Shown here in pieces: positions 12,490 to 62,454 of a stretch of 64,000 bases of DNA. Below the pieces are notes generated by a model. The model was given only the letters and a program-made list of their open reading frames with translations, searched no databases and was not told the origin of the DNA. The translations under genes and the position numbers were made by a program. The stretch comes from Candidatus Aminicenantes bacterium (lineage in GTDB: Bacteria; Acidobacteriota; Aminicenantia; Aminicenantales; Saccharicenantaceae): assembly GCA_963736255.1 (NCBI GenBank), contig CAVTOI010000003.1:1300400-1364399 (forward strand). Direction: 5' to 3'. The stretch's first letter is position 1; every line of letters starts with the position of its first letter.

Positions 12490-12522
12490 ACCCGGCCTCA
12501 AGCCGCCCCCGCTCGACGACAA

Positions 12523-16557: not shown

Positions 16558-16593
16558 CGCCGCTTTGCGGCCGGATCGGCTTGCCCGAAGGGT

Positions 16594-16997: not shown

Positions 16998-17055
16998 GGC
17001 TTGGGTCGGTCTCTTGGGGGCGGTCACCGGCGGTCTCCCGGGCTTTTGCGACAGG

Positions 17056-18543
17056 TCAGGCCTTGGGCGGGCCGGCCTTCTTCCAGCGGACCCCGTCCTT
17101 CGTGTCCTCGAGAATGATGCCCATATCCAGGAGCTCGCGGCGGATCGCGTCGGCCCTGGCGAAGTCCTTCTCCGCACGCGCCTTCAGCCGGGCCTCGATC
17201 TTGGCTTGGACCTCGGCCTCCAGGCGCTTCTCGACATCTGAGAACTCGCCGGGAGTGACAGAGGCGTTTCCCCGAACTTGTCTCGTTACAGTGATCTTCC
17301 CCGAGGCTGCGACCGTGGACGAGGGCTTAATGGCCAGGACCGCGTCGATCTCCGTGAAGAAGGCGGCGAGCTTTGCTGCCCCGTCTTTCGAGATCTCGCC
17401 CTGGACGAGAAGGGGATTGGCGTTCTTGATCAGGGTGAACACCGCGGCCAGGGCTTCGGCGATGTTGAGGTCGTCCTCGAGCCCGGCGACAAAACCGGCC
17501 AGGGCGGCCACGATGAGCGGCTCGACGGAGGTCGTCTGTCCCGCGGTCCCCGCGAGGTCCTTGAGCTCGCCGAGGAAGTTGCCCATCCTCTGGCGCGCCG
17601 TCCTGGCCTGGTCCAGGGCCTCGAAGGTGAAGTTGAGCATCCTCCGGTAATGCGTCGAGAGGAGGAGATAGCGGACGTCGGAAGGCTCATATCCCTTGGC
17701 CAGGATGTCCGCCAGGGTGTAGAAATTGCCCTTCGATTTCGACATCTTCTCGCCGTCGACGACGAGATGGTGGCAGTGGAGCCAATAGTGGGCCAGACTG
17801 ACGCCGTTGGCCGCCTCGGATTGCGCGATCTCGTTCTCGTGGTGGGGGAAGATGTTGTCGACGCCGCCGCAATGGATGTCGAACGTGGTCCCGAGGTACT
17901 TGGCGCTCATGGCCGAGCACTCGACGTGCCAGCCCGGCCGGCCCGGGCCGATCTCGGCCTCCCAAAAGGGCTCGCCCGGCTTGGCAGCCTTCCAGAGGGC
18001 GAAGTCGTGGACGCTCTCCTTCTCATATTCGTCGGCGTCGCCGCGGGCCCCCGGCCGGCGGTCCTCGAGGTTGATCTTGGACAGGCGCCCGTAGGCGGGG
18101 TACTTGTCGATGGCGAAATAGACCGAGCCTTCCTTCTTGTAGGCGAAGCCTTTTTCGAGGAGAGTCCTGATCAGGGCGACCATCTCCGGGATGTGGGCCG
18201 TCGCCCTCGGGTATTGATCGGCCGGCAGGATGGCCAGGGTGTCGCGGTCCCGGCCGAAGGCCTCGATGAACGGCTTCGTGTACTCGTCGAGGCCCACTCC
18301 CTTGGCTTGGGCCCCCCGGATGGTCTTGTCATCGACGTCGGTGATGTTCATGACGTGGGCGACTTTGAAGCCCCGGAAGAGCAGGAAGCGCTTGAGCAGG
18401 TCCTCGAAGATGTAGGCCCGCCAGTTGCCGATATGGGGGTAATCGTAGACCGTCGGGCCGCACGTATAGAGCTTGACGTGCCCGGGCTCGATCGGGACGA
18501 AGTCCTCGACCTTGCCGCCCAAGGTGTTGTGGAACCGGATCAT
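17056..18543 (-). CDS. cysS: Cysteine--tRNA ligase
   Basis: MIRFHNTL..., HIGN (HIGH motif), KMSKS motif (GEKMSKSKGN); full length. Confidence 0.95.
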   Translation of the reverse strand: MIRFHNTLGGKVEDFVPIEPGHVKLYTCGPTVYDYPHIGNWRAYIFEDLLKRFLLFRGFKVAHVMNITDVDDKTIRGAQAKGVGLDEYTKPFIEAFGRDRDTLAILPADQYPRATAHIPEMVALIRTLLEKGFAYKKEGSVYFAIDKYPAYGRLSKINLEDRRPGARGDADEYEKESVHDFALWKAAKPGEPFWEAEIGPGRPGWHVECSAMSAKYLGTTFDIHCGGVDNIFPHHENEIAQSEAANGVSLAHYWLHCHHLVVDGEKMSKSKGNFYTLADILAKGYEPSDVRYLLLSTHYRRMLNFTFEALDQARTARQRMGNFLGELKDLAGTAGQTTSVEPLIVAALAGFVAGLEDDLNIAEALAAVFTLIKNANPLLVQGEISKDGAAKLAAFFTEIDAVLAIKPSSTVAASGKITVTRQVRGNASVTPGEFSDVEKRLEAEVQAKIEARLKARAEKDFARADAIRRELLDMGIILEDTKDGVRWKKAGPPKA

Positions 18544-18875: not shown

Positions 18876-20189
18876 ATGAACGTCAAGATCGGCATCCGCA
18901 GAGAGGACATCAACAAATGGGAAAAGCGGGTCCCCCTGATCCCGTCCCATGCCCGCGAGCTCAGCGACCGCCTGCCCGTCGAATTCCGAGTCCAGCCATC
19001 GAAGATCCGCATTTTCACGGACGATGATTACCGCCTGTCCGGCATTCCCGTCGAGGAGGGACTCTCGCCCTGCCCCATCGTCCTGGCCCTCAAGGAGATC
19101 CCTATCGAGCTCATCGAAAAGGACAAGACGTATCTCTTCTTTTCCCATACCGCCAAGGGCCAGAGCCAGAACAGGCCCATGCTCAAGAGGATGATGGACC
19201 TCGGTTGCACCATCATCGATTACGAGAAGATGGTCGACGAGCAGGGGCGCCGGGTCCTCTATTTCGGGAACTATGCCGGGCACGCCGGGATGATCGACGT
19301 GCTCTGGACCCTCGGCAAGCGGCTCCAGACCGAGGGCATCGCGAATCCCTTCACGATGCTCCACCCGACCCACTATTACCAGAGCCTCGTCGACGCCCGG
19401 GAAGCCGTCGGCAAGCTCGCCTGGAAGATCGCCAAAGAGGGCGTGCCGCCCGCGCTGAGCCCCCTCATCTTCGGGTTCTTCGGCTACGGGCATGTCTCGC
19501 AGGGTGCCCAGGAGATCTTCGACCTGCTGCCGGTCGAGAATGTCAGTCCGGCCGACATCCCCAAGCTCTTCGAGGACGGCGGGAAGGTCCACAGGAACCT
19601 CTACAAGGCCGTCTTCCATGAAGAGGACATGGTCAGGCCGATCGACGGGCAGAAGGCCTTCGATCTCCAGGATTATTACCAGAATCCGCAATCTTACCGG
19701 GCCGTCACCGAGGAGGTCCTGCCGTACCTCACGGCCCTCGTCAACGGGATCTATTGGGACCCGAAATTCCCCAAGTACATCACCAAGGCCTTCTTGAAGA
19801 AGCTTTACGGCGGCGGCAACCGGCCGAGGTTCCGCGTCATCGGCGACATCACCTGCGACATCGACGGCTCGATCGAATCCACGGTCCGGGCCACCGATTC
19901 GGAGAACCCGGTTTATGTCTTCGATCCGTTCCAGGACAAGGCCTTGACCGGTTTCGAGGGCGTGGGCCCCGCGGTGCTGGCCGTCTACAATCTCCCCGCC
20001 GAGCTGCCGCTCGAGTCCTCCACCTACTTCAGCGGCAAGCTCAAGGAGCACGTCCCGGCCCTCGCCGCGGCGCGCTTCGACAAGCCCTTCGCCGAGTGCG
20101 GCCTGCCCGACGTGCTTCGCCGGGCCGTCATCGTCTACCGCGGCGAGCTCACGTCCGGCTACGCTTATCTCGGGAAATTCCTCGTCTGA
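18876..20189 (+). CDS. Lysine-ketoglutarate reductase / saccharopine dehydrogenase (L-lysine-forming), AlaDH/PNT-like fold
   Basis: Resembles the LKR half of the eukaryotic LKR/SDH and LYS1 (N-terminal substrate-binding and Rossmann domains), paired with an SDH gene downstream; assignment by overall similarity. Confidence 0.7.
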   Translation: MNVKIGIRREDINKWEKRVPLIPSHARELSDRLPVEFRVQPSKIRIFTDDDYRLSGIPVEEGLSPCPIVLALKEIPIELIEKDKTYLFFSHTAKGQSQNRPMLKRMMDLGCTIIDYEKMVDEQGRRVLYFGNYAGHAGMIDVLWTLGKRLQTEGIANPFTMLHPTHYYQSLVDAREAVGKLAWKIAKEGVPPALSPLIFGFFGYGHVSQGAQEIFDLLPVENVSPADIPKLFEDGGKVHRNLYKAVFHEEDMVRPIDGQKAFDLQDYYQNPQSYRAVTEEVLPYLTALVNGIYWDPKFPKYITKAFLKKLYGGGNRPRFRVIGDITCDIDGSIESTVRATDSENPVYVFDPFQDKALTGFEGVGPAVLAVYNLPAELPLESSTYFSGKLKEHVPALAAARFDKPFAECGLPDVLRRAVIVYRGELTSGYAYLGKFLV

Positions 20190-48384: not shown

Positions 48385-48840
48385 CTAGGGCCGAGCGTCA
48401 TGCTCCCGGATCGCCTTCAGCGATTCGATCAGCTTCGAGGCCTCTTTCCGGTTCAAATGATCGAGGTCCGGGCGCTGATAGTACTTGTGAATGAAATTCG
48501 TCAGGTGCGTTTCTTCCCAGCCGAGCTGGCTGGCCAGGGCCTTGACGAACAGCTTCTGCTTGAGGGTCATGCCGAACGAGTTGGCCCGGAAATAATCGCT
48601 GCGCACGAAGAAGCGCATCATCTTCCGGAACCCGGCCTCGTCGAGGTCCTTGGCGCTCTCGACGTCGGCGATCCTCCTCAGGATGCAGCGGTAATCCGGG
48701 TCGCTGAGCTTGAGCTCCTTCTTGACGACGTGAATGAGGGCCAGCTTCTTCCGGTCGAGTCCGCCCCCGGGCTTTTCCTGGGCGGCGGGCTCCGATGCAG
48801 GCGCCGTCGGCTTCAGCGGGACTTTCGGCTTTTTTGCCAT
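48385..48840 (-). CDS. GemA-like (phage Mu gp16, DUF1018) family protein
   Basis: RKKLALIHVVKKELKLSDPDYRCILRRIADVESAKDL... matches the GemA family core; overlaps the ligD stop by 28 nt. Confidence 0.6.
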   Translation of the reverse strand: MAKKPKVPLKPTAPASEPAAQEKPGGGLDRKKLALIHVVKKELKLSDPDYRCILRRIADVESAKDLDEAGFRKMMRFFVRSDYFRANSFGMTLKQKLFVKALASQLGWEETHLTNFIHKYYQRPDLDHLNRKEASKLIESLKAIREHDARP

Positions 48841-51284
48841 CGTTCGAACCTGGTCAACGCCGCGGCGAGATCGAGCCTTTTTTTAAACAGGCCCCGCCAG
48901 GCGTCGCCCTTCTTGGCCAGACGTTCCGGGACCGTGCGGATGTTGAAATCGAGAGGATCGAGCTTGGCCGTGACGTCCTTCCAATCGAGAGGCATCGAGA
49001 CGGGCGCTCCCTCGCGCGGCCGCACGGCGTAGGGGGAAGCCATGGTCGCCCCGTTGCGGTTCTGCAGATAATCCAGGTACACCCGGCCCTTGCGCTTGGC
49101 CGGGCTGCGCTCCAGGCTCGTCAGGTCCGGGTACCGGCGGTTGACGACCAGGCACACGAGGTGGGCCAGCTCCCGGGCCTGCTCGTAGCTGAAGCGGGGC
49201 GCCAGGGGGATATAGATATGGAGCCCTGTGGCCCCGGACGTCTTGCAGAAGGCCGGGATGGCCATCTCGTCGAGGAAGGCCTTGGCCGCCAGCACGGCCT
49301 CGACGACGCTGGGGAACGAGGTCTCGAGCGGATCGAAATCGAGGACGATGTAATCCGGTGACTCAAGACGGGGGACCGATGAGCTCCAGACGTTGATCTC
49401 GATGCAGCCGAGGTTGGCCTCGTAGAGCAGCGTGTCCCTGTTCTCGCAGACGAGGTAGCGGATGGTCTTGCGCTCGCTCTCGGTGGCGAGATCTACGGTT
49501 TTAACCCACTCGGGCGGCGTCTGAGCCAGGTTCTTTTGGAAAAAGTTCTTGCCCTCGATTCCGTCGGGATGCCGGTTCAGCGCCTGGGGCCGGGCCTTGA
49601 GGTAGGGGAGGATCCACTCGGAGACCCTCCAATAGTATTCGACCAGGTCGCCCTTGGTGGTTCCCTCGCCGGGCCAGTAGACCTTTTCGAGGTGGGTCAG
49701 TTCGGCGCGCGTCCTGATATTGGTCTTTTGCAGGACCGCCTCCCGGGGCGCGGGTTCCTCCCGTACGACTTCACGGGCGCTCTTGTCCTCCCTGAGGCCC
49801 AGGAAGACGGGGTGGCGCATCAGCCCCTCGGCGGTCCATTCGCTGAACTTGACCTCGCAGATCAGGCGCGGCTCGACCCAAGTCACCGGCATGTCCGACG
49901 GCGGCTCATCGACGAACGGGGACCGTGGCGTCGCGAGAGGCGTGAGCTTGGCGTATATGTCCTTCAGGGTGCGCCCGGTGAAGCCCGTGCCGACGTGGCC
50001 GATATACGCGAGCCGGCCCTTCCTGAAGGCGCCCAGGATCAAGGCCCCGAAGTATTGGCGGGAAGCGCGCGGCTGGGTGAAGCCGCAGATGACGGCCTCC
50101 TGCCTTCGCTGGGTCTTGATCTTGAGCCACTCCCGGGTCCGCGCTCCCGAGCGATAAGGACTGGCCAGGTCTTTGGCCACGATGCCCTCGAGCCCGTTCG
50201 TTTCTGCGGCGCGGAAGAAGGCCTTGCCGCGCGTCTCGATCGCCTCACTCAGCCGCACGGTATCGGAAACGGGGAGGAGCTTCTCCAGGATGGCCCTGCG
50301 GCGCTTGAGCGGAAGTCCCCGGAGGTCGCGGCCCGCGGCATAGAGGATATCGAAGACGTAGTAGAGGATGCGGCCCTCCCCGGGGCGCATCGCGTTCTGA
50401 AGGTCCTGGAAGTGGGGCCGGCCTTTCGAGTCGACGGCAACGATCTCGCCGTCGAACACGGCGTTCACGGGAAAGCCGGCCAAGGCTGCGGCGACCGTGG
50501 GAAATCGGGCGTTCTGCGACTTGCCGTTGCGGGACAGGAGGCGCACCTTGCCCCCCTTGATCTCGGCGAGCGAGCGGAAGCCGTCCCACTTGACCTCGAA
50601 GGTCCAGCCCTCGCGGTCGAAGGGGCCGTCGACCAAGGTGGCCAGCATGGGGCTCGTCTCCGTCGGGAAAGGCGCCTTGGCCGCCCCCGTGAGGTCAAGG
50701 TCCTCCGGCGAGGGCGTGCGGCCGGGCTTCGGCGGCGGGGGATCGGCGGCGCTGGCTCCTGCGGCCTTGCGGGCGGCGGGCGGGCGGTCTGTCCGCTTCA
50801 TCAGGAGCCATTGGTTGTCCTTGTCGCCCTGTCTTTTAATGCGGACGAGCGTGAAAGCGCCCTTGAGCCTCTTCCCTTTGAGGGTGAAATCGATGTGGCC
50901 CTTGGCGAGGGAGGCGTCCATGGACCGCCCTTCCTGTCCGGGGCCGGGCTCCGTGAGCGTATAAGTCCCCTTGTCCCAGATCTCGACCAGCCCGGCGCCG
51001 TACTGGCCCTCCGGGATCCGGCCCTTGAAATCCTTGTAGGCAAGGGGATGGTCCTCGACCATGATGGCCAGGCGCTTGTCGCGGGGGTCCATCGACGGGC
51101 CCTTGGGCACAGCCCAGCTCTTCAGGACGCCGGCGTGCTCCAGACGGAGATCGTAGTGGAGGTGCGAGGCCTGGTGCTTCTGGACGACGAAATGACGGCC
51201 GCCGCCGCTCCCCGCGGCAGGGGAGGGCTTCGGTTCGGGCGTCTTGCCGAAAGCTCTTTTCCGGCGATATTCCTTCAGGGCCAT
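48813..51284 (-). CDS. ligD: ATP-dependent DNA ligase LigD (phosphoesterase-ligase-polymerase three-domain NHEJ ligase)
   Basis: N-terminal PE domain (YRRKRAFGKTPEP...HYDLRLE), ligase adenylation motif (KWDGFR), C-terminal primase-polymerase domain. Confidence 0.9.
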   Translation of the reverse strand: MALKEYRRKRAFGKTPEPKPSPAAGSGGGRHFVVQKHQASHLHYDLRLEHAGVLKSWAVPKGPSMDPRDKRLAIMVEDHPLAYKDFKGRIPEGQYGAGLVEIWDKGTYTLTEPGPGQEGRSMDASLAKGHIDFTLKGKRLKGAFTLVRIKRQGDKDNQWLLMKRTDRPPAARKAAGASAADPPPPKPGRTPSPEDLDLTGAAKAPFPTETSPMLATLVDGPFDREGWTFEVKWDGFRSLAEIKGGKVRLLSRNGKSQNARFPTVAAALAGFPVNAVFDGEIVAVDSKGRPHFQDLQNAMRPGEGRILYYVFDILYAAGRDLRGLPLKRRRAILEKLLPVSDTVRLSEAIETRGKAFFRAAETNGLEGIVAKDLASPYRSGARTREWLKIKTQRRQEAVICGFTQPRASRQYFGALILGAFRKGRLAYIGHVGTGFTGRTLKDIYAKLTPLATPRSPFVDEPPSDMPVTWVEPRLICEVKFSEWTAEGLMRHPVFLGLREDKSAREVVREEPAPREAVLQKTNIRTRAELTHLEKVYWPGEGTTKGDLVEYYWRVSEWILPYLKARPQALNRHPDGIEGKNFFQKNLAQTPPEWVKTVDLATESERKTIRYLVCENRDTLLYEANLGCIEINVWSSSVPRLESPDYIVLDFDPLETSFPSVVEAVLAAKAFLDEMAIPAFCKTSGATGLHIYIPLAPRFSYEQARELAHLVCLVVNRRYPDLTSLERSPAKRKGRVYLDYLQNRNGATMASPYAVRPREGAPVSMPLDWKDVTAKLDPLDFNIRTVPERLAKKGDAWRGLFKKRLDLAAALTRFERWQKSRKSR

Positions 51285-51301: not shown

Positions 51302-52144
51302 CTAGTGCCGCGTCGCGGACAGGCTCTCCTTGAGCTTGGCCATGATGTCCTCGACCTCGGTCGCTCGCGGCGCCTCTTCTTCGGGGACATGGACGGTCTT
51401 GCCCTTGGCCTTGGCGGCGATGATCGAGCGCAGGCGCGCGGCGTAGGTATCCTTGTAGGCTTCAGGTTCGAATTCGCCCCCGAACTTCTTGATCAGGTCG
51501 AGGGCCAGCTCCATCTGGTTCTTGGGGACGTCGGCCTTGGCCGGCAGGTCGAGCCCGGACGCGTCCCGGAGCGAGGCGGCGAAACGGAGCATGATAAGCA
51601 GGATGACCCGGCCCTCCGGCTTGAGCATGACGAGATGCTCGCGATCCCTGAGGACGAAGATGCCGATGCCGACCTTCTTCGAGACGGCCATGGCCTCGCG
51701 GAACAGGGCGTAGGCCGTGCCGGCCTTCTTCTGGGGCTCGAGATAGTACGGCTTCTCGATGTACTTGGGGTCGACGTCCTTTTCGTCGACGAAGACCCCG
51801 ATCTCGATGGCCGAGGTCCGCTTGACGTCGGCCTTCTCGAAATCCTCGTCCTTCAGGACGACGTAATCGCCGTCCCGGTATTCGTACCCCTTGACGATAT
51901 CCTGGAACGGGACTTCCTCGCCCGTCAGGCGGCAGACCTTCTTATAGGCGATGGGGCAGAGGTCGTCCTTGCGCAGGTAGTTCATCTCGTGGATCTCGGG
52001 CTTGACCGCCGTATAGAGATTGACCGGCACGTTGACCAGGCCGAAGCTGATCATGCCCCGCCAGGAAGGGCGGGCGCCGGCGGCCGGCTTGTCTTCGTCA
52101 GGGGTCTGGGCGCGCTTGGCGCTTTTGGTCTTCTTGGTGGCCAT
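51302..52144 (-). CDS. ku: NHEJ protein Ku
   Basis: Ku core (ISFGLVNVPVNLY...), Lys-rich N-terminus; immediately upstream of ligD on the same strand. Confidence 0.9.
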   Translation of the reverse strand: MATKKTKSAKRAQTPDEDKPAAGARPSWRGMISFGLVNVPVNLYTAVKPEIHEMNYLRKDDLCPIAYKKVCRLTGEEVPFQDIVKGYEYRDGDYVVLKDEDFEKADVKRTSAIEIGVFVDEKDVDPKYIEKPYYLEPQKKAGTAYALFREAMAVSKKVGIGIFVLRDREHLVMLKPEGRVILLIMLRFAASLRDASGLDLPAKADVPKNQMELALDLIKKFGGEFEPEAYKDTYAARLRSIIAAKAKGKTVHVPEEEAPRATEVEDIMAKLKESLSATRH

Positions 52145-55315: not shown

Positions 55316-55935
55316 GAGTCTCTCTCCCTCCTGGGCCGGATCAACAACCTCATGTCCTTATATAGACCAGGGACTGGAGGAAAGCAATAGAAAGAGGAAA
55401 ATTATTTCATAATATTGGCTAGCTATCATAAATGACATCTGGCAATGTCGGCGTGCCGACAATTCCCTTAACGCAAATAATATGAATAAGTTAAACGTCT
55501 GTTGATTACCCGGCCAGCGGAGTTGAGGGGCGATGACGCGGAGTTATTCGGAGTCTTCCGGCGGCTTGAGAGGGGCCACGCTGGCATAATACGCGCGTGC
55601 TGGCCGCGAGAGCCGTCTATCGGTCGCCAAAGTCGAGTCTCACCTCCCCGCGCGTCCCCGCGGATCAGTCGACTGACAACGGTGAACTCTCACCTTTCGG
55701 TGATATCGTAGGTCCGTTAACGATTCCTTAGACGGAACGCTGGAGGTGGTGGATAATCTATCCAACAAACCAGGCCTAGCATTAGCGCGTGATTTTCCGG
55801 CCTGGGAATCCCCGGAATGCCACGGCGGTGAATATTCGTAAGTAACAGATAATAAAAGAAATATGGGCATGAATATAACATGCTGATAGAAAACAATATA
55901 GAGCCGCGGTTGACGCGGACCACTTTTTACGTAGA

Positions 55936-57381
55936 ATGAGGTCCGAAATGATCTCGCCCCGCCCGCCCGCCGCGTCGGAACCGGGGTTCCTGCGGAAGCT
56001 CGGTCTCATCGACACCACGTTCCTGGTCATCGGGGCGGTCGTCGGCTCGGGGATCTTCATGACCCCGGGGCTCATCGCCGTAGGGCTCCCCTCGCCCGGT
56101 CTCCTTCTCGTCGTCTGGCTGGCCGGGGGCCTCATCACGCTCTGCGGGGCGCTCTCGTTCGCGGAACTCGGGGCGATGTACCCTCAGGCCGGCGGCCAAT
56201 ACATCTACCTGCGCGAGGCTTACGGGCCCGCCGCAGCCTTCCTTTTCGGGTGGGCTTTTTTCGGGTTCATCATGTGCGGCGGACTGGCCGCCCTGGCCGT
56301 CGCTTTCGCCGAATTCCTGGGCTCGTTCGTCCCGTTCCTCTCGACGGGCCATATCCTGCTCAAGCTCGAGGTCCTGGGGCTGCCCTTCAGCCTCTCCGCA
56401 GGCCAGCTTGTCGCCGCCGCCTCGATCCTTTTCCTGACCTTCCTCAACTCGTTCGGCATCCGGTCCGGCGCCGTCGTCCAGAACGTCCTGACCGTCTTCC
56501 GGCTGGTCACGGTCGCCGCCCTCGTGGGGCTCGGGATCCTCTTCGGGGTCAAAGCGGGCGGCTCGAACTTTCACCCGCTCTTTCCCGCCGGCCCGGGATT
56601 CCCCGCCGTCCTCGGCTCGATCGGCCTGGCCCTCGTCGCTATCTTCTGGACCTATGACGGCTGGTATTCCGTCAACTGCACGGCCGAGGAGATCCGGGAC
56701 CCGGCCAAGAACATCCCGCGCGGACTGACGCTCGGGGTCCTCGCCGTCACCGGGATCTATGTCCTGGTGAATCTCGTCTACCTCCTGGCCCTGCCTCTCG
56801 AACGGCTGAAGGGTGTCGTCCGCGTCGGCGAGCTGGCCGCATCGGCCCTGTTCGGGGCCGGCGGCGCGGCCCTCTTCTCCGCTGTGGTCATGATCTCGAT
56901 CTTCGGCTGTCTCGATGCCAACCTCCTCTTCGGCCCCCGCGTCTTCTACGCCATGGCCAGGGACGGCTATTTCTTCCGGGCCATGGGACGCCTCGGGGGC
57001 CGGAGCCGGGTGCCCGTCGGGGCCCTCTGGGGACAGGCCGCCTGGTCGGCCGTCCTTTGTCTCTCCGGCAAGTACGAATCGCTCTATAAGTACATGGTCT
57101 TCGCCCTGCTCCTGTTTTTCGCCGCGACGGGACTGGCCGTCTTCATCCTGCGGCGGCGCGCGCCGGACGTGGCCCGTCCCTATCGGACTTGGGGTTTCCC
57201 GGTCGTGCCCGTCGTCTTCATCGCCATGTCGCTGGCCGTTTTCGCCAGCATCGTCGCCAGCCAGCCCTTGAAATCGCTGGTCGGGGCGGGGCTCCTCGCC
57301 GCCGGCATCCCCGTTTACCTCATCTGGAAGGGCCGCGCTGGGCGCGCCGCGCTGTCCGGGCTAAAAAAGGATTCCCCCTGA
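55936..57381 (+). CDS. APC-superfamily amino acid/polyamine/organocation permease
   Basis: 12 predicted TM helices; APC signatures (GAVVGSGIFMTPG...); first gene of the corrinoid methyltransferase cluster. Confidence 0.85.
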   Translation: MRSEMISPRPPAASEPGFLRKLGLIDTTFLVIGAVVGSGIFMTPGLIAVGLPSPGLLLVVWLAGGLITLCGALSFAELGAMYPQAGGQYIYLREAYGPAAAFLFGWAFFGFIMCGGLAALAVAFAEFLGSFVPFLSTGHILLKLEVLGLPFSLSAGQLVAAASILFLTFLNSFGIRSGAVVQNVLTVFRLVTVAALVGLGILFGVKAGGSNFHPLFPAGPGFPAVLGSIGLALVAIFWTYDGWYSVNCTAEEIRDPAKNIPRGLTLGVLAVTGIYVLVNLVYLLALPLERLKGVVRVGELAASALFGAGGAALFSAVVMISIFGCLDANLLFGPRVFYAMARDGYFFRAMGRLGGRSRVPVGALWGQAAWSAVLCLSGKYESLYKYMVFALLLFFAATGLAVFILRRRAPDVARPYRTWGFPVVPVVFIAMSLAVFASIVASQPLKSLVGAGLLAAGIPVYLIWKGRAGRAALSGLKKDSP

Positions 57382-57427
57382 GCGGGATTTCGTTTAAGAT
57401 GGGACCGCGGAGCCGTCAGGGACACCG

Positions 57428-59209
57428 ATGAGCGACACGATGTTCACCGTCGAGATACTGCCCGAGGGGACGAAGGTCAGGGCCCGGGCCGGAGACGTCC
57501 TGGCCGACATCCTCGTCAGGGCCGGCATCCCGCTCAGCCTCTATTGCCACCAGAGGGGCGTTTGCGGCAAATGCGCCGTCCGCATCCTCAGCGGCCCCCT
57601 CCCCTTCCCCGCCGCGCTCGAAGCGACCCTCCTGGAGAGACGCGGTTTGGGCCCCGACCACCGTCTCGCCTGCCTCTACGTCGTCCGCAGCGACGTCACC
57701 GTCGAAACGCTGCCGGGCTCGCGGCTGGAGAAGGTCGCCGTTCTCGACACAGGGCTGCCGTCGGCCGCGTTCGTCGATCCGGCAGTCAAGAAGCTCTCCG
57801 TCGTCCTGCAGAAGCCGTCGCTCTATGCACCGGTCGCCGTGGCCGATTCCCTCCGGGCCCAGCTCAGATCCCCCGACCTCGTGATGACCTTGGCCGCCTT
57901 GTCGAAGCTCGGCGGGTCGATCCTCGGCCCGTCCCACCCCGTCGCCGCCGTCCTCTACGACGACCGCGAGGTCCTCGATATCGAGCCGGACGAGCCCGGG
58001 CGTGAGGCGTTCGGGCTGGCCATCGACCTGGGCACGACGACAGTTGCGGCCGAGCTCGTGGACCTGCAGACCGGGCGGATCGCCGACCGGGCCGCCGCTG
58101 TCAACGCCCAGAACTCCTACGGCGCCGACGTCGTCTCCCGCATCACCTTCGCGTTCGAGAACCCCGACAACCTCAGGCGCCTGAAGGGGGCGGCCGTCCA
58201 GCTTATCAACGACCTCGTCGGCTCGATGTGCCGGCGGAGCGGCGTGCCCCGGCACAGGATCTACGACGCCGTCGTGGCCGGAAATGCGGCCATGAACCAC
58301 ATCCTCTGCGGCGTCGCCGTCGATTCGCTGGCCCTGGCGCCCTTCCATGCCGTGTTCTCGAAGCTGCCGCCGCTCGCGGCTGCCGAGATCGGCTTCGCGC
58401 TCCATCCGCAGGCCCGCGTCTACATCTCGCCGAACATCAAGAGTTTCGTCGGCGGCGACATCACGGCCGGGCTCGTGGCCTCGTCGTTCGCGGCGGAGCC
58501 GGGGGCGGGTCTGTTCATCGACCTCGGTACGAACGGCGAGATCGTGCTCAAGAAGGGCGGCGAGTTCGCCGCCACGTCGACGGCTGCCGGGCCGGCCTTC
58601 GAAGGCATGAACATCAGCTGTGGCATGCTGGCCGTGCCGGGGGCCATCCATAAGGCCGAGTGGGACAACGGCTTCAAGTGCCGCACGGTCGATGACCTGC
58701 CGCCTCAAGGCGTCTGCGGGACGGGGCTCATCGACATCCTCGCCGGTGCCCTCGCCCGCGGCCTCCTCGGCCGCGACGGCCGGATCGCCGGCCCGGAGAA
58801 GCGCATCCGCCTGACCGACCGTTTGGCCCTGACCCAGCAGGATATCCGGGACGTCCAGCTGGCCGTTGCCGCGGTCCGGAGCGGGGTGCGGCTCATGCTC
58901 CGCGAATTCCGCCTGACCGTCGCCGAGCTCGATCGTGTCGTCGTCGCCGGTGCCTTCGGCAGCTCGCTCGACATCGGCAACGCCGTTGCCCTGGGGCTGC
59001 TTCCGGACGTGCCCCCCGACAGGATCGCCTTCATCGGCAACGCGTCCCTGGCCGGGGCCCGGCTTCTTCTGCTCTCCCGCCCGGCCCGATCGGTCGCGGA
59101 GACGCTGGCGGCCAAGGTCTCCCATATCTCCCTGGCCACCCGGCCTGATTTCCAGGAGGAGTTCGTTCGGTCCCTCGAATTCAACAGCTATCCGAAAGAA
59201 GAGAAATGA
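57428..59209 (+). CDS. Corrinoid reductive activase (RamA/RACo-like): N-terminal [2Fe-2S] ferredoxin domain plus ASKHA ATPase (DUF4445)
   Basis: CHQRGVCGKCAV ... C motif of plant-type ferredoxin; ASKHA motifs (AIDLGTTTV, DLGTNGEIV, GTGLID). Confidence 0.8.
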   Translation: MSDTMFTVEILPEGTKVRARAGDVLADILVRAGIPLSLYCHQRGVCGKCAVRILSGPLPFPAALEATLLERRGLGPDHRLACLYVVRSDVTVETLPGSRLEKVAVLDTGLPSAAFVDPAVKKLSVVLQKPSLYAPVAVADSLRAQLRSPDLVMTLAALSKLGGSILGPSHPVAAVLYDDREVLDIEPDEPGREAFGLAIDLGTTTVAAELVDLQTGRIADRAAAVNAQNSYGADVVSRITFAFENPDNLRRLKGAAVQLINDLVGSMCRRSGVPRHRIYDAVVAGNAAMNHILCGVAVDSLALAPFHAVFSKLPPLAAAEIGFALHPQARVYISPNIKSFVGGDITAGLVASSFAAEPGAGLFIDLGTNGEIVLKKGGEFAATSTAAGPAFEGMNISCGMLAVPGAIHKAEWDNGFKCRTVDDLPPQGVCGTGLIDILAGALARGLLGRDGRIAGPEKRIRLTDRLALTQQDIRDVQLAVAAVRSGVRLMLREFRLTVAELDRVVVAGAFGSSLDIGNAVALGLLPDVPPDRIAFIGNASLAGARLLLLSRPARSVAETLAAKVSHISLATRPDFQEEFVRSLEFNSYPKEEK

Positions 59210-60099
59210 CCCATCCGCTTCTCTCCCTCGCCCGGACAAGGACCGTCCTTTTCGACGGCGCCCTGGGCACGGAGCTCATGGCCCGGGGCCTCGACCGGGG
59301 CGCCGCCCCGGAGCTCTGGAACATCGACCGGCCGGACGCCGTCCGGGAAGTCCACGCGGCCTATTTCGCGGCCGGGGCCGATATCGTCTCCACGAACAGC
59401 TTCGGCGGCACGCCGATCAGGCTGGCGGCCCACGGGCTCGAGGCCCGCGCCTTCGAATTGAACCGCGCCGCGGCCCGCCTCGCGCGCGAGACCGCCCCGG
59501 CCGGGGGCTTCGTGGCCGGTAGCATGGGCCCGACCGGAATATTCCTGTCGCCCCAAGGCCCTGCGACCGAGGCCGGGCTCGTCGCGGCCTACGCCGAGCA
59601 GGCCCGCGGGCTCGCGGCGGGCGGGGTCGATCTCTTCATCATCGAGACCCAGTACGACTTGCGAGAAGCACTGGCTGCCCTGAAGGGCGCGCAGAGCGTT
59701 TCGCGGCTGCCCGTATTCGTCACGCTGACGTTCAGCGCCTTCCCGCGCGGCTATTTCACCATCATGGGCGATCCTGCCGCCCGATCGGCCGCGGAAGCGG
59801 AAAAGGCCGGCGCCGCCGCGGTCGGGGCCAACTGCAACTTGACGAGCGAGCAAATGGTCGGCTGCGTCAAAGCCATCCGGGCGGCCACGTCCCTTCCGGT
59901 CGTCGCCCAGGCCAACGCCGGACAACCCGTCCCGGCGTCGGACGGGACCGTCGGCTATTCCCAGACGCTCGAGGACTTCGTCCGATTCGTACCCGGGACC
60001 GTCGCGGCCGGCGCCGGCTTCGTCGGCGGCTGCTGCGGAACGAACCCGGAGACTATCCGGGCCATGGCCCGGATCATCCGCCGTGAGGAGAAATCATGA
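59206..60099 (+). CDS. Homocysteine S-methyltransferase-domain protein (MetH N-terminal-like, Zn/thiol type); candidate methylcorrinoid:acceptor methyltransferase (MT2)
   Basis: Pfam S-methyl_trans-like architecture with zinc ligands GANCN and GGCCGT (FVGGCCGTNPETIRAM); translationally coupled to ramA (upstream) and the corrinoid protein (downstream). Confidence 0.75.
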   Translation: MTHPLLSLARTRTVLFDGALGTELMARGLDRGAAPELWNIDRPDAVREVHAAYFAAGADIVSTNSFGGTPIRLAAHGLEARAFELNRAAARLARETAPAGGFVAGSMGPTGIFLSPQGPATEAGLVAAYAEQARGLAAGGVDLFIIETQYDLREALAALKGAQSVSRLPVFVTLTFSAFPRGYFTIMGDPAARSAAEAEKAGAAAVGANCNLTSEQMVGCVKAIRAATSLPVVAQANAGQPVPASDGTVGYSQTLEDFVRFVPGTVAAGAGFVGGCCGTNPETIRAMARIIRREEKS

Positions 60100-60749
60100 T
60101 CAAGAACGAGATCTTTGCCAAGATGACCGAGGCCATCGTCGCCGGGGACCGGAAAGCCGCCCGCGCCCTTGCCGAGGAAGCGGTGCGCTCGGGGCTCGAC
60201 CTCCCCGAGGTCGTGGAGAAGGGCTATGTCCCCGGCATCCAAAAGGTCGGGGAGCTCTGGGAGCAGGGCGAGTACTTCCTGCCCGAGCTCATCACCAGCG
60301 CGGAGGCCATGAAAGCGGCCATGGCGGTCCTCGAGCCCGAGCTCAACCGCAAAGGGGTCGGCGCCCGGATGGGCGGCAAGATCGTCATCGGGACCGTCGA
60401 GGGCGACATCCACGACATCGGCAAGAACCTCGTCGCGTCCATGCTCCAGGCCGGCGGCTTCGAGGTCTTCGACCTGGGCGCCGACGTCAAGCTCGAGAAG
60501 TTCATCGAGACGGCCGAGGCGGTGGGCGCCGGCATGATCTGCCTGTCCGCCCTGCTGACGACGACCATGGTCGGCCAGCGGCGGTTCATCGCCCTCCTTC
60601 GCGACAAGGGCCTTCGGGACAAGTACAGGGTTCTCGTGGGCGGCGCCCCGGCCAGCGGGAAGTGGGCCGAGGAGATCGGTGCGGACGGTTACGCCGAGAA
60701 CGCCGTCGCCGCCGTCAAGCTGGCCAAATCACTGGCCGGGCATTCCTGA
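60096..60749 (+). CDS. B12-binding corrinoid protein (MtmC/MtbC/MttC/MtgC family)
   Basis: N-terminal B12-binding_2 helical cap plus Rossmann B12-binding domain with DxHxxG (GDIHDIGKN) and downstream S/T..L..G motifs. Confidence 0.85.
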   Translation: MIKNEIFAKMTEAIVAGDRKAARALAEEAVRSGLDLPEVVEKGYVPGIQKVGELWEQGEYFLPELITSAEAMKAAMAVLEPELNRKGVGARMGGKIVIGTVEGDIHDIGKNLVASMLQAGGFEVFDLGADVKLEKFIETAEAVGAGMICLSALLTTTMVGQRRFIALLRDKGLRDKYRVLVGGAPASGKWAEEIGADGYAENAVAAVKLAKSLAGHS

Positions 60750-60792
60750 GACCGCCCGGCGCGACGTCATTGACGATGTGAAAGGTGCGGAG

Positions 60793-62262
60793 ATGATCGA
60801 GACAAAAAGACCGAAGCTGGAGCTCCTGTCCCCTGCTCTCGTCGAGCAGATCGTCGATGAAGGGCTGACCATCCTCGAAAAGCACGGCGTCATGGTCGAG
60901 AACGCCGAGGCGCTGGGCCTTCTCGCGGGCGCGGGGGCCGACGTCGATCTCGGCTCGGAGCGCGTCCGGATCGGCCGCAAGCTCGTCCAGGATTGCCTGG
61001 CGACGACCCCGGCCTCCGTCGCGCTTTACGACCGGGAGGGAAGCCGGGCCTTTACCGTCGGCGGGGACGAGGTCCATTTCGACCCGGGCTCGGCCGCCGT
61101 GACCCTACTCGACCATGCCACCCAAGCGGAGCGCAAGGCCACGACGGCCGACGTCGTCGACATGTACAAGCTCGTCGAGACCCTGGAGCACATCCACTTC
61201 CAGAGCACGGCCCTCATCGCCTCCGACGTTCCGGGCGCAGTCGCCGACGCCTTCCGCCTCTACCTCGGCCTGCTCCTGTCCGAGAAGCCTTTCGTCACCG
61301 GGACCTTCCGGGTCGAGGGCTTCGGGCCGATGAAGGACCTCCTCGCTGCGGTGCGCGGCGGAGAGGGGGCGCTCAGGGCCAAGCCGCTGGCTATCTTCGA
61401 CGCCTGCCCCTCCCCTCCCCTCAAGTGGAGCAACCTGACGACCCAGAGCCTGATCGATGCGGCCCGGGCCGGCATCCCGTCCGAGCTCATCTCGATGGGC
61501 ATGACGGGGGCGACCTCTCCGACGACGATCGCCGGGACCCTCGTCCAGCACGTGGCCGAGAACCTGTCCGGGCTGGTCATCGGCCAGCTGGCCGGCCGCG
61601 GCGCGCCGGTCATCTTCGGCGGCTCGCCGTCGAGCTTCGACATGCGGAAAGGCACGACCCCCATGGGCGCGATGGAAACGATGATGATCGACGCCGCCTA
61701 TGCCCAGATCGGCAAGTTCCTGAAGCTGCCGACGCACGCCTACATGGCGCTGAGCGACGCCAAGGTCAATGACCCTCAAGCCGGCTTCGAGACGGCCCTT
61801 GGCGCGGTCCTCGGCGCCCTGGCCGGCGTCAACGTCATCTCGGGGCCGGGCATGCTCGATTACGAGAGCAGCATGAGCCTGGAAAAGCTGGCCATCGACG
61901 ACGGCATCTGCGCCATGGTCTACCGCCTGCTCGACGGCATCGCCCAGCGGGACGACCCCATCGCGCTGGGCGCTTTCGAGGGCTTTGTGCCGGGGATGTC
62001 TTTCCTCACCCATCCCCATACCCGCCAGTGGTACAAGAAGGAGCACATCGGCGCCGGGCTCGCGGACAGAGATAACTACCAGGCCTGGGTCGCGGCCGGC
62101 CGGACCTCGATCGTCGACAAGGCCCATGCCGACGTCGGCCGGCGCCTTGGAAAATATGCCGCTCCTCCGCTCGACGAGGCCGTCCGGAAAGAGCTCGATC
62201 GCATCATGGGCGACTACGGCCGGGTTTCGGGCGCCGGCGACTGGAAGCTGCCCGTTCTCTAA
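60793..62262 (+). CDS. MttB-superfamily (trimethylamine methyltransferase family) substrate:corrinoid methyltransferase, non-pyrrolysine type (MT1)
   Basis: 489-aa TIM-barrel MttB-family protein (MIETKRPKLELLSPALVEQIVDEGLTILEKHGV...); no in-frame amber codon; the table ORF from 60679 includes upstream junk. Confidence 0.85.
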   Translation: MIETKRPKLELLSPALVEQIVDEGLTILEKHGVMVENAEALGLLAGAGADVDLGSERVRIGRKLVQDCLATTPASVALYDREGSRAFTVGGDEVHFDPGSAAVTLLDHATQAERKATTADVVDMYKLVETLEHIHFQSTALIASDVPGAVADAFRLYLGLLLSEKPFVTGTFRVEGFGPMKDLLAAVRGGEGALRAKPLAIFDACPSPPLKWSNLTTQSLIDAARAGIPSELISMGMTGATSPTTIAGTLVQHVAENLSGLVIGQLAGRGAPVIFGGSPSSFDMRKGTTPMGAMETMMIDAAYAQIGKFLKLPTHAYMALSDAKVNDPQAGFETALGAVLGALAGVNVISGPGMLDYESSMSLEKLAIDDGICAMVYRLLDGIAQRDDPIALGAFEGFVPGMSFLTHPHTRQWYKKEHIGAGLADRDNYQAWVAAGRTSIVDKAHADVGRRLGKYAAPPLDEAVRKELDRIMGDYGRVSGAGDWKLPVL

Positions 62263-62454
62263 GGTGCATCTCTCATTTCCGGGAGTCGCTCTCGAGGCTG
62301 CGACGGATGTCGCTCCAAGCCCCCGTGAGGGAAGGGGGACCCGCCGAAGGCGGGGGAAACCGTATAAGGAGGTTTCCGGGGCGCGGGGGCAAGGAGCGAT
62401 ATCCGAAGCGATGCCGAAGAGAAGGGACTCCCGGAATCGGGAGATGAACCTATT

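Follow-up and report, generated by a model that had tools for sequence, protein, structure and literature searches.

Five co-directional genes on the forward strand of a 64-kb window (the whole 64,000-nucleotide stretch of DNA analyzed) from Candidatus Aminicenantes, an uncultured sediment bacterium, encode a LAT-type APC permease, a RACo-type activase, a homocysteine methyltransferase-like protein (MT2), a corrinoid protein, and an MttB-family methyltransferase (MT1), in that order (positions 55936 to 62262; Table 1). A first-pass annotation had described a translationally coupled gene set here, and all five open reading frames were recovered exactly where it had placed them, with strong Pfam domain assignments in each. 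The activase/MT2 and MT2/corrinoid protein junctions are both ATGA overlaps, the two remaining gaps measure 46 and 43 nt, and a scan of the operon interior for terminators gave none of note. Across Aminicenantes, the position between parAB and a beta-CASP RNase gene is conserved, and loci with MT1 identities down to 73% carry the identical five genes there in the identical order. Coupling was borne out by the two overlaps and by a conserved promoter-like site upstream, and the five genes form a genuine operon.

Alignment of nine orthologous Aminicenantes loci showed conservation of the −10 element (TAGAAT/TACAAT) and of both AT-rich repeats; no riboswitch was found upstream of the operon. Because the conserved promoter-like site extends over the ATG at 55936, translation of the permease probably begins at ATG 55948; the APC assignment of the first pass stood, and its start codon would move. 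Downstream, the spacer hairpin has a minimum free energy of −124.4 kcal/mol (z = −10.0 against 200 shuffles) and inverted-repeat arms at 62262-62290 and 62423-62451. The corresponding place in orthologous loci holds another hairpin or no spacer, and the hairpin probably acts as a bidirectional terminator or represents a palindromic insertion.

Table 1. Genes and flanking elements of the operon, in window coordinates
Feature	Coordinates	Strand	Basis
AT-rich direct repeat AGATAATAAAA, 5′ of promoter-like site	55847-55857		
AT-rich direct repeat TGATAGAAAACAATATA, 5′ of promoter-like site	55884-55900		
Promoter-like site, TTGACG-16 nt-TAGAAT	55910..55937	+	Consensus scan, 10/12
LAT-family (APC superfamily, SLC7-like) amino acid permease/exchanger	55936..57381	+	AA_permease_2 PF13520, 200.8 bits
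RACo-type ATP-dependent reductive corrinoid activase	57428..59209	+	Fer2 + RACo_linker + Raco_middle + RACo_C_ter, 231 bits
MT2, stand-alone homocysteine-binding Zn methyltransferase	59206..60099	+	S-methyl_trans PF02574, 230.4 bits, whole length
Corrinoid (cobalamin-binding) protein	60096..60749	+	B12-binding_2 PF02607 + B12-binding PF02310
MT1, non-pyrrolysine MttB-superfamily methyltransferase	60793..62262	+	MTTB PF06253, 303.8 bits
Spacer, 192 nt, between MT1 and convergent beta-CASP RNase gene	62263..62454	.	Single long hairpin

The permease matched TIGR00909 and TIGR00911 (L-type amino acid transporter), both under cutoff. Among solved structures it is nearest to BasC (6f2g, 196.5 bits), then to xCT, b0,+AT, y+LAT, and LAT1/2; against the S-methylmethionine permease model it scored only 21.6 bits. 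In Aminicenantes loci the operon begins with orthologs of 66 to 90% identity; a 41% homolog lies immediately 5′ of MT1 at an Acidobacteriota locus (L013). We propose, from these similarities, that the permease imports the methyl donor, possibly exchanging it for the demethylated product; because its linkage to the module is limited to Aminicenantes and two other loci (L013 and L103), the cargo could instead be methionine or homocysteine.

The activase joins an N-terminal plant-type [2Fe-2S] ferredoxin domain (cluster cysteines C40-x5-C46-x2-C49...C82) to an ASKHA ATPase domain and aligns over its full length with Carboxydothermus RACo (3zyy, 317.8 bits); NCBIfam scores were below cutoff for both AcsV (394.7; cutoff, 800) and RamA (TIGR04270, 163; cutoff, 500). 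Its Pfam domains and cysteines identify what had been called a RamA/RACo-like activase as the RACo type. The corrinoid protein has a helical cap and a Rossmann domain with the motif D104-x-H106-x-x-G109 (the DxHxxG of the first pass), and it matches PF02607 and PF02310. It scored above cutoff as a “methyltransferase cognate corrinoid protein” (TIGR02370, 226.9; cutoff, 215.3), below cutoff for MtgC (NF047995, 234.9; cutoff, 310), and only 136 for MetH. These scores assign it to the cognate type of methylamine methyltransferases, with a predicted role as methyl carrier.

MT2 had been read as a thiol-type enzyme, and the profile searches agree, with PF02574 matched over the whole protein and no match to pterin-binding (PF00809) or URO-D domains. 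The motifs listed in the first pass (GANC, GGCCG, DxHxxG, and the [2Fe-2S] cysteines) are all present in the translations; in MT2, GANC (C210) and GGCCG (C276, C277) supply the Zn ligands, which are invariant in 41 homologs together with E147 of an IET motif. Among solved structures, MT2 scores best against the Thermus/Thermotoga MetH homocysteine modules (148 to 139 bits), far above MmuM (87.5) and BHMT (64), and it scores under the NCBIfam cutoffs for the last two. Across many phyla and gene orders, its homologs are immediate neighbors of corrinoid proteins. We propose that MT2 acts as a methylcob(III)amide:homocysteine methyltransferase.

MT1 belongs to the MttB superfamily, as first annotated: Foldseek with its predicted structure gave TM 0.80 to Methanosarcina MttB (7xcl) and 0.77 to 0.78 to MtgB, and MttB was the top PDB sequence score (213 bits). 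The TIGR02369 score (389) was below the cutoff of 525. MT1 shares 33% identity with M. barkeri MttB and 30% with D. hafniense MtgB, and alphaproteobacterial homologs reach no more than 34% (4yyc, 137 bits); at the sequence level, the MT1 subfamily is distinct from both MttB and MtgB, being about 30 to 33% identical to each. The claimed lack of an amber/Pyl codon was confirmed, with no internal stop in the reading frame. The MttB pyrrolysine aligns to Leu320 (codon CTG, 61750-61752) in the protein alignment, and the UAG of Rfam PYLIS_3 stands opposite CUG in the nucleotide alignment. Residual similarity to the PYLIS region of mttB persists at the nucleotide level, and the protein retains the SDAK motif that follows the pyrrolysine site. 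In the active site, Ser100 and Ser350 take the places of MttB Gly110 and Tyr364, and none of the four glycine betaine contacts of MtgB (Y97, R312, H348, and F356) is kept, the equivalents being S100, H315, S350, and E358. These replacements are conserved within the subfamily and compatible with a substrate other than glycine betaine. The AF2 model (pLDDT, 70; pTM, 0.78) has low confidence precisely in the active-site loops, so the pocket is read here from the alignment. MT1 is proposed to act as a methyl donor:cob(I)amide methyltransferase.

Gene neighborhoods were counted at 87 loci carrying the MT1 subfamily in several phyla, with partners defined as lying within 5 kb of MT1. Corrinoid proteins were found at 61 loci and PF02574 homocysteine methyltransferases at 44; the activation partner was a PF02965 protein (MetH-type SAM activation) at 27 and RACo at 22. 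Pterin-binding proteins occurred within 5 kb at 0/87 loci, and a search of the entire window found no such gene; beyond these regions, an MtgD-like pterin-binding partner or a canonical MetH may be encoded elsewhere in the genome. With these partners, the unit resembles MetH with an MttB module replacing the folate module. Where MT1 was flanked by 4 kb or more on each side (27 loci), a corrinoid protein and MT2 were nearby together at only 14, and no partner at all was present at 7, so the association is strong but not universal. [quoted passage not shown] No further gene family was enriched beside the module (none accounted for more than 3 of 113 flanking genes), as would be expected of a self-contained biosynthetic unit more than of a catabolic pathway.

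We consider it fairly likely, from sequence comparison, that the products of the operon together form a cobalamin-dependent methionine synthase that is made of separate proteins and does without folate, and in which an MttB-family module replaces the methyl-tetrahydrofolate module of MetH. Transfer of an amine methyl group to a thiol such as homocysteine, making methionine, had been suggested from the first reading, and the MetH-like MT2, the recurrent clusters, and the 0/87 count for pterin-binding partners support it. The LAT-type permease would import a methylated amine, probably quaternary or otherwise cationic and amino acid-like, and might export the demethylated product in exchange. The donor would bind in the TIM-barrel pocket of MT1, which would move a single methyl group onto the Co(I) corrinoid held by the carrier protein; the methyl-Co(III) protein would then dock on MT2 and yield its methyl group to a Zn-bound homocysteine thiolate, forming methionine and regenerating Co(I). 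Accidental Co(II) would be re-reduced by the RACo-type activase using its [2Fe-2S] cluster and ATP.

MetH and the operon have in common the homocysteine-binding Zn module, the DxHxxG B12 module, and the chemistry of the second half-reaction, and the SAM-binding activation module of MetH (PF02965) also occurs in sister clusters of the operon. Unlike MetH, the operon consists of separate proteins without a folate module and has instead a TIM barrel of the MttB family, which differs in fold family; its corrinoid protein is nearer the methylamine type (227 to 235 bits) than the MetH B12 domain (136 bits), and its reactivation would be of the ATP/ferredoxin type, that of MetH being of the SAM/flavodoxin type. 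In the D. hafniense MtgB/MtgC/MtgA and E. limosum MtpB/MtcB/MtyB/MthB systems (the latter by description), too, a non-pyrrolysine member of the MttB superfamily serves as MT1 and works with a cognate corrinoid protein and a RamA-like activase; the first half-reaction (quaternary amine to Co(I)) is presumably shared. Their MT2, however, is a pterin-binding methylcorrinoid:THF methyltransferase serving catabolism or acetogenesis, and their transporter is BCCT rather than LAT/APC. In the MttB/MttC/RamA system, MT2 is a URO-D-type CoM methyltransferase in contrast to the PF02574 protein found here, and Methanosarcina RamA carries two [4Fe-4S] clusters, whereas the window activase has an N-terminal [2Fe-2S] domain like RACo.

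MtgBCDE of Ruegeria pomeroyi, Phaeobacter inhibens, and Sinorhizobium meliloti is a modular glycine betaine demethylase and split methionine synthase (Price et al. 2018; Mausz et al. 2025, PMC12478193). In this system as in the operon, MT1 belongs to the MttB family, the corrinoid protein and the PF02574 module (MtgE/Bmt in the former) are separate polypeptides, and a RamA-like protein handles reactivation; the MttB-type donor module and the homocysteine acceptor module draw on one and the same corrinoid carrier, a sharing demonstrated genetically in Ruegeria (PMC12478193). The hosts differ, being aerobic Alphaproteobacteria for MtgBCDE and an anaerobic sediment lineage for the operon. As in Ruegeria, the corrinoid protein might be shared by two pathways and completed by a pterin-binding methyltransferase encoded elsewhere: MT1 would feed tetrahydrofolate through the corrinoid protein for oxidation or acetogenesis, methyl-THF would supply MT2 through the same protein for methionine, and direct amine-to-methionine flow would be incidental. 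R. pomeroyi needs MtgC and MtgD for glycine betaine use and methionine synthesis alike (PMC12478193), and two Aminicenantales loci (L006 and L101) have a CdhD/AcsC-like corrinoid Fe-S protein gene beside the module, a hint of a Wood-Ljungdahl methyl branch in the lineage. Several MT1 loci (L104 to L113) also have the corrinoid protein and activase without a nearby MT2. We nonetheless regard such a two-pathway arrangement as unlikely here. MtgD is essential and carries the corrinoid/tetrahydrofolate flux in MtgBCDE, whereas pterin-binding genes are absent within 5 kb of MT1 at all 87 loci and from the window; linkage in the marine bacteria is the opposite, with mtgD clustering with mtgBC and mtgE usually unlinked, whereas MT2 is translationally coupled to the corrinoid protein here; and the recurring co-linear unit is MT1, activation protein, corrinoid protein, and MT2.

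In E. coli, mmuP and mmuM couple a permease of the APC type to a PF02574 enzyme. By that precedent, the permease and MT2 would form a cobalamin-free, MmuP/MmuM-like or Bmt-like pair methylating homocysteine from an imported sulfonium or betaine (e.g., S-methylmethionine, DMSP, or glycine betaine), with MT1, the corrinoid protein, and the activase as a separate demethylation pathway. Phaeobacter Bmt, the homocysteine module of a split MetH, does methylate homocysteine directly from DMSP or betaine in vitro. Such a division of the operon is nevertheless very improbable, given that MT2 is clearly nearer the MetH modules than MmuM or BHMT and under the cutoffs for both, is coupled to the activase on its 5′ side and the corrinoid protein on its 3′ side, and has homologs beside corrinoid proteins across many phyla and gene orders; the poor match of the permease to the S-methylmethionine permease model also argues against it. 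We give hardly any credence to a thiol acceptor other than homocysteine (e.g., sulfide, cysteine, or mercaptopropionate) or to reverse methyl flow, in which methionine or a methylthioether would be the donor and an amine, reached by way of the corrinoid, the acceptor, yielding a quaternary amine osmolyte. Zn-dependent corrinoid methyltransferases of methanogens (MtsA) are reversible on methylthioethers, and the permease resembles carriers of methionine and other neutral amino acids. To our knowledge, however, all characterized PF02574 enzymes use homocysteine or selenohomocysteine as the acceptor, and MT2 keeps the family-invariant residues, including E147. Quaternary amine to Co(I) and methyl-Co(III) to thiolate likewise appear, as far as we know, to be the thermodynamically favored directions in all studied MttB-family and MetH systems, and the MetH-type activation proteins found as partners point to methionine synthesis.

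For the preferred reading, a synthase fed by MT1, there is a published counterpart. Williams et al. (2022, Environ Microbiol, PMC9324843) described the cluster type in Electryoneota and “diverse bacteria” and proposed corrinoid-dependent methionine synthesis for it, reached independently and as a genomic hypothesis only, so membership says nothing yet about the substrate. We recovered the cluster type in Phycisphaerae, Acidobacteriota, Ignavibacteria, and many metagenome contigs, with MT1s 44 to 55% identical to that of the window and sharing its pocket signature. The published cluster and the operon have three core proteins in common and are alike in proposed function, and both MT1s fall in a subfamily separate from MtgB/MttB and slightly nearer MttB. 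The operon differs in its gene order, in the LAT-type permease at its head, and in having an ATP-dependent RACo-type activase instead of the PF02965 protein. Because the cluster type and its functional hypothesis were already published (PMC9324843) and genetics has established a related modular system (PMC12478193), the first-pass annotation had rated the novelty of the operon too high. The Aminicenantes operon is a variant of the published cluster type, with a RACo activase and an amino acid exchanger, and it probably serves to scavenge ready-made methyl groups for methionine and SAM, beside MetH or in its place.

Five plus-strand open reading frames make up the operon, as the first-pass annotation had listed them, and all five were confirmed from translations and Pfam matches. 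The translational coupling that it had claimed was found as ATGA overlaps joining the activase stop to the start of MT2 (homocysteine methyltransferase) and the MT2 stop to the start of the corrinoid protein gene; the remaining two junctions are gaps of 46 and 43 nt. A promoter-like TTGACG-16-TAGAAT lies directly upstream of the operon (sequence scan), and its -10 element and two preceding AT-rich repeats are kept across nine orthologous loci (alignment). The permease was first assigned the ATG at 55936, which the -10 element overlaps, so translation more likely begins at 55948. No riboswitch was found in the 620 nt preceding the operon (Rfam, gathering and E-value thresholds), and no SAM or cobalamin riboswitch across 25 sister loci (Rfam). 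The remaining window genes are housekeeping genes (dnaK, dnaJ, grpE, hrcA, cysS, alaS, lon, rho, tig, ku, and ligD), with no folate or one-carbon genes found among them, and no PF00809 match came from the 41 window ORFs, of 55 predicted, that were scanned with Pfam.

Coordinates of the operon genes, of neighboring features, and of related loci (L numbers are handles for loci recovered from genomes or metagenomes with relatives of MT1 or MT2)
Feature	Source	Coordinates	Strand	Evidence or content
LigD-like NHEJ gene	Window	48813-51284	-	Translation
Ku NHEJ gene	Window	51302-52144	-	Translation
Perfect palindrome	Window	55444-55464		AATGTCGGCGTGCCGACAATT
APC-type amino-acid permease	Window	55936-57381	+	PF13520, 200.8 bits
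RACo-type activase	Window	57428-59209	+	Fer2, RACo_linker, Raco_middle, RACo_C_ter (Pfam)
MT2, full-length homocysteine S-methyltransferase domain	Window	59206-60099	+	PF02574, 230.4 bits
Corrinoid protein	Window	60096-60749	+	B12-binding cap and B12-binding domains (Pfam)
MT1, MTTB-family	Window	60793-62262	+	PF06253, 303.8 bits
Spacer after MT1	Window	62263-62454		192 nt
Copy of spacer	L097 (Aminicenantes)	19735-19912		70% identical
Divergent upstream region	L001 (GCA_041304185.1, 3.19-Mb contig)	1616-9949		
Second Aminicenantales arrangement	L006	6701-14655		
Second Aminicenantales arrangement	L101	1606-8097		
URO-D-linked pair	L011 (Bacteroidales)	7041-10231		URO-D fused to thioredoxin domain
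URO-D-linked pair	L010 (Dehalococcoidia)	10001-17344		RACo present
URO-D-linked pair	L048 (Nitrospinota)	2-4421		RACo present
URO-D-linked pair	L037 (unclassified bacterium)	6333-10825		Preceded by sodium:solute symporter

A tRNA-Asn(GUU) gene on the plus strand (8273-8598) carries a 247-nt group I intron (about 8310-8556) in its anticodon loop, matched by Rfam RF00028 across the whole model at 87.8 bits. ARAGORN does not find the gene with the intron in place and calls tRNA-Asn(gtt) when exon 8273-8309 is joined to the sequence from 8557 onward; the intron has a DnaC/IstB-like ATPase gene on one side and, on the other, an ORF (8667-9779) that matches no Pfam family. The Ku and LigD-like genes, read from translations alone, lie just upstream of parAB. 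The palindrome occupies the parA-permease intergenic region, is kept in one or two copies in every aligned Aminicenantes locus, and may serve the adjacent ParB as a parS-like site or the operon as an operator. The spacer after MT1 folds into one very stable hairpin (-124 kcal/mol, z = -10); the same position holds a different hairpin in the close relatives L086 and L088 and no spacer in L003. Together with the copy elsewhere in L097, these differences suggest that such palindromes form a family of insertion elements and may double as bidirectional terminators.

The assignment of MT1 to the MttB superfamily holds, with PF06253 matching residues 2-469 of 489 at 303.8 bits (cut-off, 25). Scores against Methanosarcina barkeri MttB (213 bits) and Desulfitobacterium hafniense MtgB (205 bits) are nearly equal, and the Sinorhizobium meliloti homologue 4yyc scores 137 bits. 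Identity is 30 to 33% to MtgB and MttB and at most 34% to plasmid-borne alphaproteobacterial homologues, in a comparison set made up of MttB, MtgB, the S. meliloti structure, and these plasmid-borne proteins. Against TIGR02369 (MttB proper, equivalog), MT1 scores 389.2, below the cut-off of 525. The AF2 model of MT1 (pLDDT, 70.1; pTM, 0.78) superposes on 7xcl (MttB; TM, 0.80), 9yce and 2qne (MtgB; 0.77 to 0.78), and 4yyc (0.76), and the next fold class reaches a TM of at most 0.37; the predicted fold is the MttB/MtgB TIM barrel with C-terminal dimerization extension, its active-site loops being of low confidence. MT1 is predicted to methylate its cognate Co(I) corrinoid protein from a methylated amine, a role that the adjacent cognate-type corrinoid protein supports.

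MT1 was correctly described as lacking an amber (pyrrolysine) codon: its ORF is uninterrupted, Pyl334 of MttB aligns to Leu320, and the UAG of the Rfam mttB element PYLIS_3 aligns to a CUG at 61750-61752. PYLIS_3 matches inside MT1 genes were the sole Rfam matches in the riboswitch search. The match in window MT1 (61750-61849; 27.3 bits), with the model UAG on this Leu codon, is below threshold, and matches at or above the gathering score occur in the MT1 genes of 11 sister loci (L017, L139, L140, L146-L149, L151, L155, L159, and L160). Because the ORFs have no UAG, we read these matches as leftover mttB coding-sequence similarity, not function; the Rfam model can therefore give false positives on nonpyrrolysine homologues.

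MtgB binds glycine betaine via four residues, each needed for activity: Y97 and F356 through cation-pi contacts, and R312 and H348 at the carboxylate (mutagenesis and ligand-bound structure; Picking et al. 2026, PMC13080624). The Y97/R312/H348/F356 positions are S100/H315/S350/E358 in window MT1 (alignment), none of the four contacts being kept, and glycine betaine was rejected as the default donor on this ground. In MttB, the residues aligned with S100 and S350 are Gly110 and Tyr364, which organize the pyrrolysine site. S, H/Q, S, and E are kept at the four sites in all relatives from homocysteine-type clusters, within the subfamily motifs PGS(A/S)A, PT(H/Q)xY(M/I)xLSDAK, and SGPGMLD(F/Y)E; because the replacements are conserved throughout these relatives, MT1 is neither MtgB nor MttB. 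With the arginine lost and acidic D356 and E358 present, the pocket suggests a donor without a carboxylate beside the methylated nitrogen. The AF2 model falls below a pLDDT of 50 in loops 204-213, 231-240, 278-291, 320-326, and 352-359, and because it is unreliable in exactly these active-site loops, the pocket was read from the alignment only. Neighboring genes gave no substrate clue: clustering of 763 ORFs from 85 loci and Pfam searches of 113 genes flanking MT1 modules found no enriched transporter, catabolic enzyme, or further family beyond the core. Recurrent neighbors (peptidases, glycosidase-like proteins, an aminotransferase, and TldD/PmbA) reflect lineage synteny only.

MT2 had been called a thiol-type enzyme, and Pfam agreed, with full-length PF02574 and no pterin-binding (PF00809) or URO-D match. 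The GANC and GGCCG ligand motifs are present, and C210, C276, and C277 are invariant in 41 homologues. The nearest solved relatives are the Hcy modules of Thermus and Thermotoga MetH (148 to 139 bits), with MmuM (87.5) and BHMT (64) more distant. MT2 is an MtgE relative and not an equivalog, because its score against NF005718 (alphaproteobacterial "BHMT," MtgE-type), 214 bits, is under the cut-off of 338. The corrinoid protein carries the DxHxxG motif reported for it as D104-x-H106-x-x-G109, scores above the cut-off of TIGR02370, "methyltransferase cognate corrinoid protein" (226.9 versus 215.3 bits), and is far closer to MtgC and MtbC than to the MetH B12 domain.

The predicted RamA/RACo-like [2Fe-2S] and ASKHA architecture of the activase was borne out by all four Pfam domains and by the cysteines C40-x5-C46-x2-C49...C82. 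Residues 12-582 align end to end to Carboxydothermus RACo (3zyy; 317.8 bits), and the N terminus is a [2Fe-2S] domain as in RACo, not the [4Fe-4S] clusters of RamA; because it is under the AcsV and RamA equivalog cut-offs, the protein is a member of the RACo/RamA family (COG3894) and neither named orthologue. The PF13520 match likewise upheld an APC-type transporter, which among solved structures is closest to the LAT-family exchangers BasC, xCT, b0,+AT, y+LAT, and LAT1/2; it scores 194 bits against TIGR00911, far under the cut-off of 701.8.

The closest homologues (MT1, 73 to 97% identity; MT2, 70 to 91%) are all metagenomic, and the named ones are from Candidatus Aminicenantes, Aminicenantales, or Acidobacteriota. 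The five genes occur in the same order (APC/RACo/MT2/corrinoid protein/MT1 in Aminicenantes) in L002, L003, and L004 (three independent assemblies of genomes or reads) and in 16 metagenome contigs, flanked by parA-parB on one side and a convergent beta-CASP RNase gene on the other, in loci whose MT1 identity goes as low as 73%. A phmmer search with MT2 against 1.84 billion representatives gave 16,527 matches (E-value up to 0.001), the best 150 of which were mostly stand-alone proteins of ~295 residues. A GTDB genome scan with an alignment of MT2-type proteins yielded 80 loci, which were probed by tblastn with the window proteins and four E. coli MetH modules; many short MetH genes were among them, where matches of the pterin probe served as a positive control. 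Clusters of the order MT1/X/corrinoid protein/MT2, X being the gene between MT1 and the corrinoid protein, were found in Acidobacteriota (L013 and L017), Phycisphaerae (L015), and Ignavibacteria (L020). Their MT1s are 44 to 48% identical to window MT1 and share its pocket signature; X in L015 is a stand-alone MetH activation-domain protein (PF02965), and in L013, 22 nt separate MT1 from an APC permease (41% identical) upstream of it.

A second scan, of metagenomes with an MT1-subfamily alignment, yielded 80 further loci; partner counts cover 87 loci, a partner being counted if at most 5 kb from MT1. A corrinoid protein was present in 61/87 loci, a PF02574 protein in 44, a PF02965-type activation protein in 27, RACo in 22, and an APC permease in 13, while a pterin-binding protein was found near MT1 in none of the 87 (tblastn, E. 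coli MetH pterin module). Where at least 4 kb flanked MT1 on both sides (n = 27), 20 loci had a corrinoid protein (14 also MT2), 20 had an activase of either type, and 7 had no partner. Recurring orders were MT1/activation protein/corrinoid protein/MT2, corrinoid protein/MT2/activation protein/MT1, corrinoid protein/activation protein/MT1, and RACo/corrinoid protein/MT1.

Other arrangements were also recovered. L001 encodes an MT1 identical to that of L002 behind a different upstream region. There, an 827-amino-acid ORF fuses an FAD_binding_2 domain to the last 80 residues of MT2 and to the corrinoid protein; ahead of it are genes for an OYE-type flavoprotein, for a URO-D methyltransferase, and for another corrinoid protein. 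Either a real rearrangement has destroyed MT2 in this locus, or the assembly is chimeric. In L006 and L101, a CdhD/AcsC-like corrinoid Fe-S protein gene is followed by RACo (34% identical to that of the window), MT2, corrinoid protein, and MT1 (67%), and the module thus adjoins Wood-Ljungdahl-type genes; L006 has, in addition, a distant second MttB paralogue (27%) after the module. In four further loci, a pair of stand-alone homocysteine methyltransferase and corrinoid protein genes has a URO-D-family methyltransferase, not an MttB homologue, as its neighbor. Such loci may encode methionine synthases that draw on yet other methyl donors. The pattern suggests that modular methionine synthases are a wider group whose donor modules can be exchanged.

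Clusters of a nonpyrrolysine MtgB/MttB homologue, a homocysteine S-methyltransferase, a corrinoid protein, and an activation protein were described in Ca. Electryoneota and "diverse bacteria," with an MT1 clade apart from MtgB and MttB and nearer MttB (Williams et al. 2022, PMC9324843). By that published description, the window operon is alike in having an MT1 apart from MtgB and MttB, with PF02574 and corrinoid protein genes adjacent; it has no PF02965 gene, the reactivation role falling to the RACo-type activase, and this activase, the probable LAT-type permease, and the fixed Aminicenantes order set it apart. The split methionine synthase is also established, and was shown to have its corrinoid protein in common with an MttB-family glycine betaine methyltransferase (Price et al. 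2018; Mausz et al. 2025, PMC12478193). The window operon resembles this MtgBCDE system in its separate Hcy-binding (MtgE/Bmt-type), corrinoid (MtgC-type), and reactivation proteins, whereas the pterin-binding MtgD essential there has no counterpart gene near MT1 in the 87 loci. We found no publication describing this operon in Aminicenantes, and because the cluster type and the split synthase were already described, we regard it as a variant of a published kind.

The recurring unit comprises the homocysteine, cobalamin, and reactivation modules of MetH with an MttB-family barrel where the folate module would be. The most economical reading, which we consider probable though well short of assured, is that the operon would carry out folate-independent, B12-dependent methionine synthesis from a methylated amine. 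MT1 would demethylate the amine and pass the methyl group to the Co(I) corrinoid protein, and MT2 would hand it to Zn-activated homocysteine, giving methionine. RACo and ATP would rescue oxidized Co(II) in Aminicenantes, and in the sister clusters SAM would do so through reductive methylation. The Aminicenantes permease would bring the donor in, perhaps against the demethylated product, in the manner of LAT-family exchangers and other precursor/product antiporters. Our observations consist of the parts list, motifs, coupling, and co-occurrence; the chemistry of the cycle is inferred from the characterized families MetH, MtgB/MtgC, RACo, and MtgBCDE.

The real flux might instead run through a pterin-binding protein from another part of the genome, making the corrinoid protein part of a hub as in Ruegeria MtgBCDE. 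Some relatives have no nearby MT2, and our view here spans 64 kb of the genome, both of which leave room for such a protein; yet MT2 is tightly linked in the operon, pterin genes are near MT1 in none of the 87 loci, and marine bacteria are reported to have the opposite pattern, with mtgD linked and mtgE apart, so that we think the hub rather unlikely. MT2 might also act as a direct methyltransferase of the MmuP/MmuM or Bmt kind, as Phaeobacter Bmt does in vitro. Its affinities and its coupling to the corrinoid protein make this very improbable, and MmuP/MmuM-type S-methylmethionine salvage was rejected as the main reading. Other thiol acceptors or a reversed methyl flow, which family precedent and thermodynamics both disfavor, have hardly any chance of being right.

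Within the reading of the operon as a folate-independent, B12-dependent methionine synthase, a bolder version, which we hold only tentatively and think somewhat unlikely, takes the donor to be of a class new to the MttB superfamily: a cationic, amino-acid-like quaternary amine (N-epsilon-trimethyllysine or similar) with LAT-type uptake. On this version, the operon may be the main methionine synthase in Aminicenantes, RACo having replaced the SAM-dependent MetH activation module. The swap of a SAM-type activation module for ATP-type RACo is a clear case of nonorthologous displacement in corrinoid enzyme maintenance within an otherwise conserved system.

To our knowledge, most MttB-superfamily proteins are without a known substrate, and those with one all feed catabolism or methanogenesis via folate or coenzyme M. 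Specialists will find the result no surprise, given that both the cluster type and the hypothesis have been in print since 2022 and that a related system was demonstrated in 2025. In the abundant, uncultured Aminicenantes, heterologous reconstitution of an operon this compact and conserved, which brings a transporter and an activase with it, offers a practical way to the methyl donor. If the novel-donor version is true, there would be a family of modular methionine synthases in which one homocysteine methyltransferase and corrinoid protein pair works with exchangeable donor modules, of the MttB type here and of the URO-D type in the Bacteroidales, Dehalococcoidia, and Nitrospinota loci. If the methionine-synthesis reading is true, an MT1 subfamily wired to a homocysteine methyltransferase would be a third B12-dependent, folate-free methionine route, beside MetH and core-MetE/Mes, and methylated-amine turnover in anoxic sediments would be tied to methionine and SAM supply.
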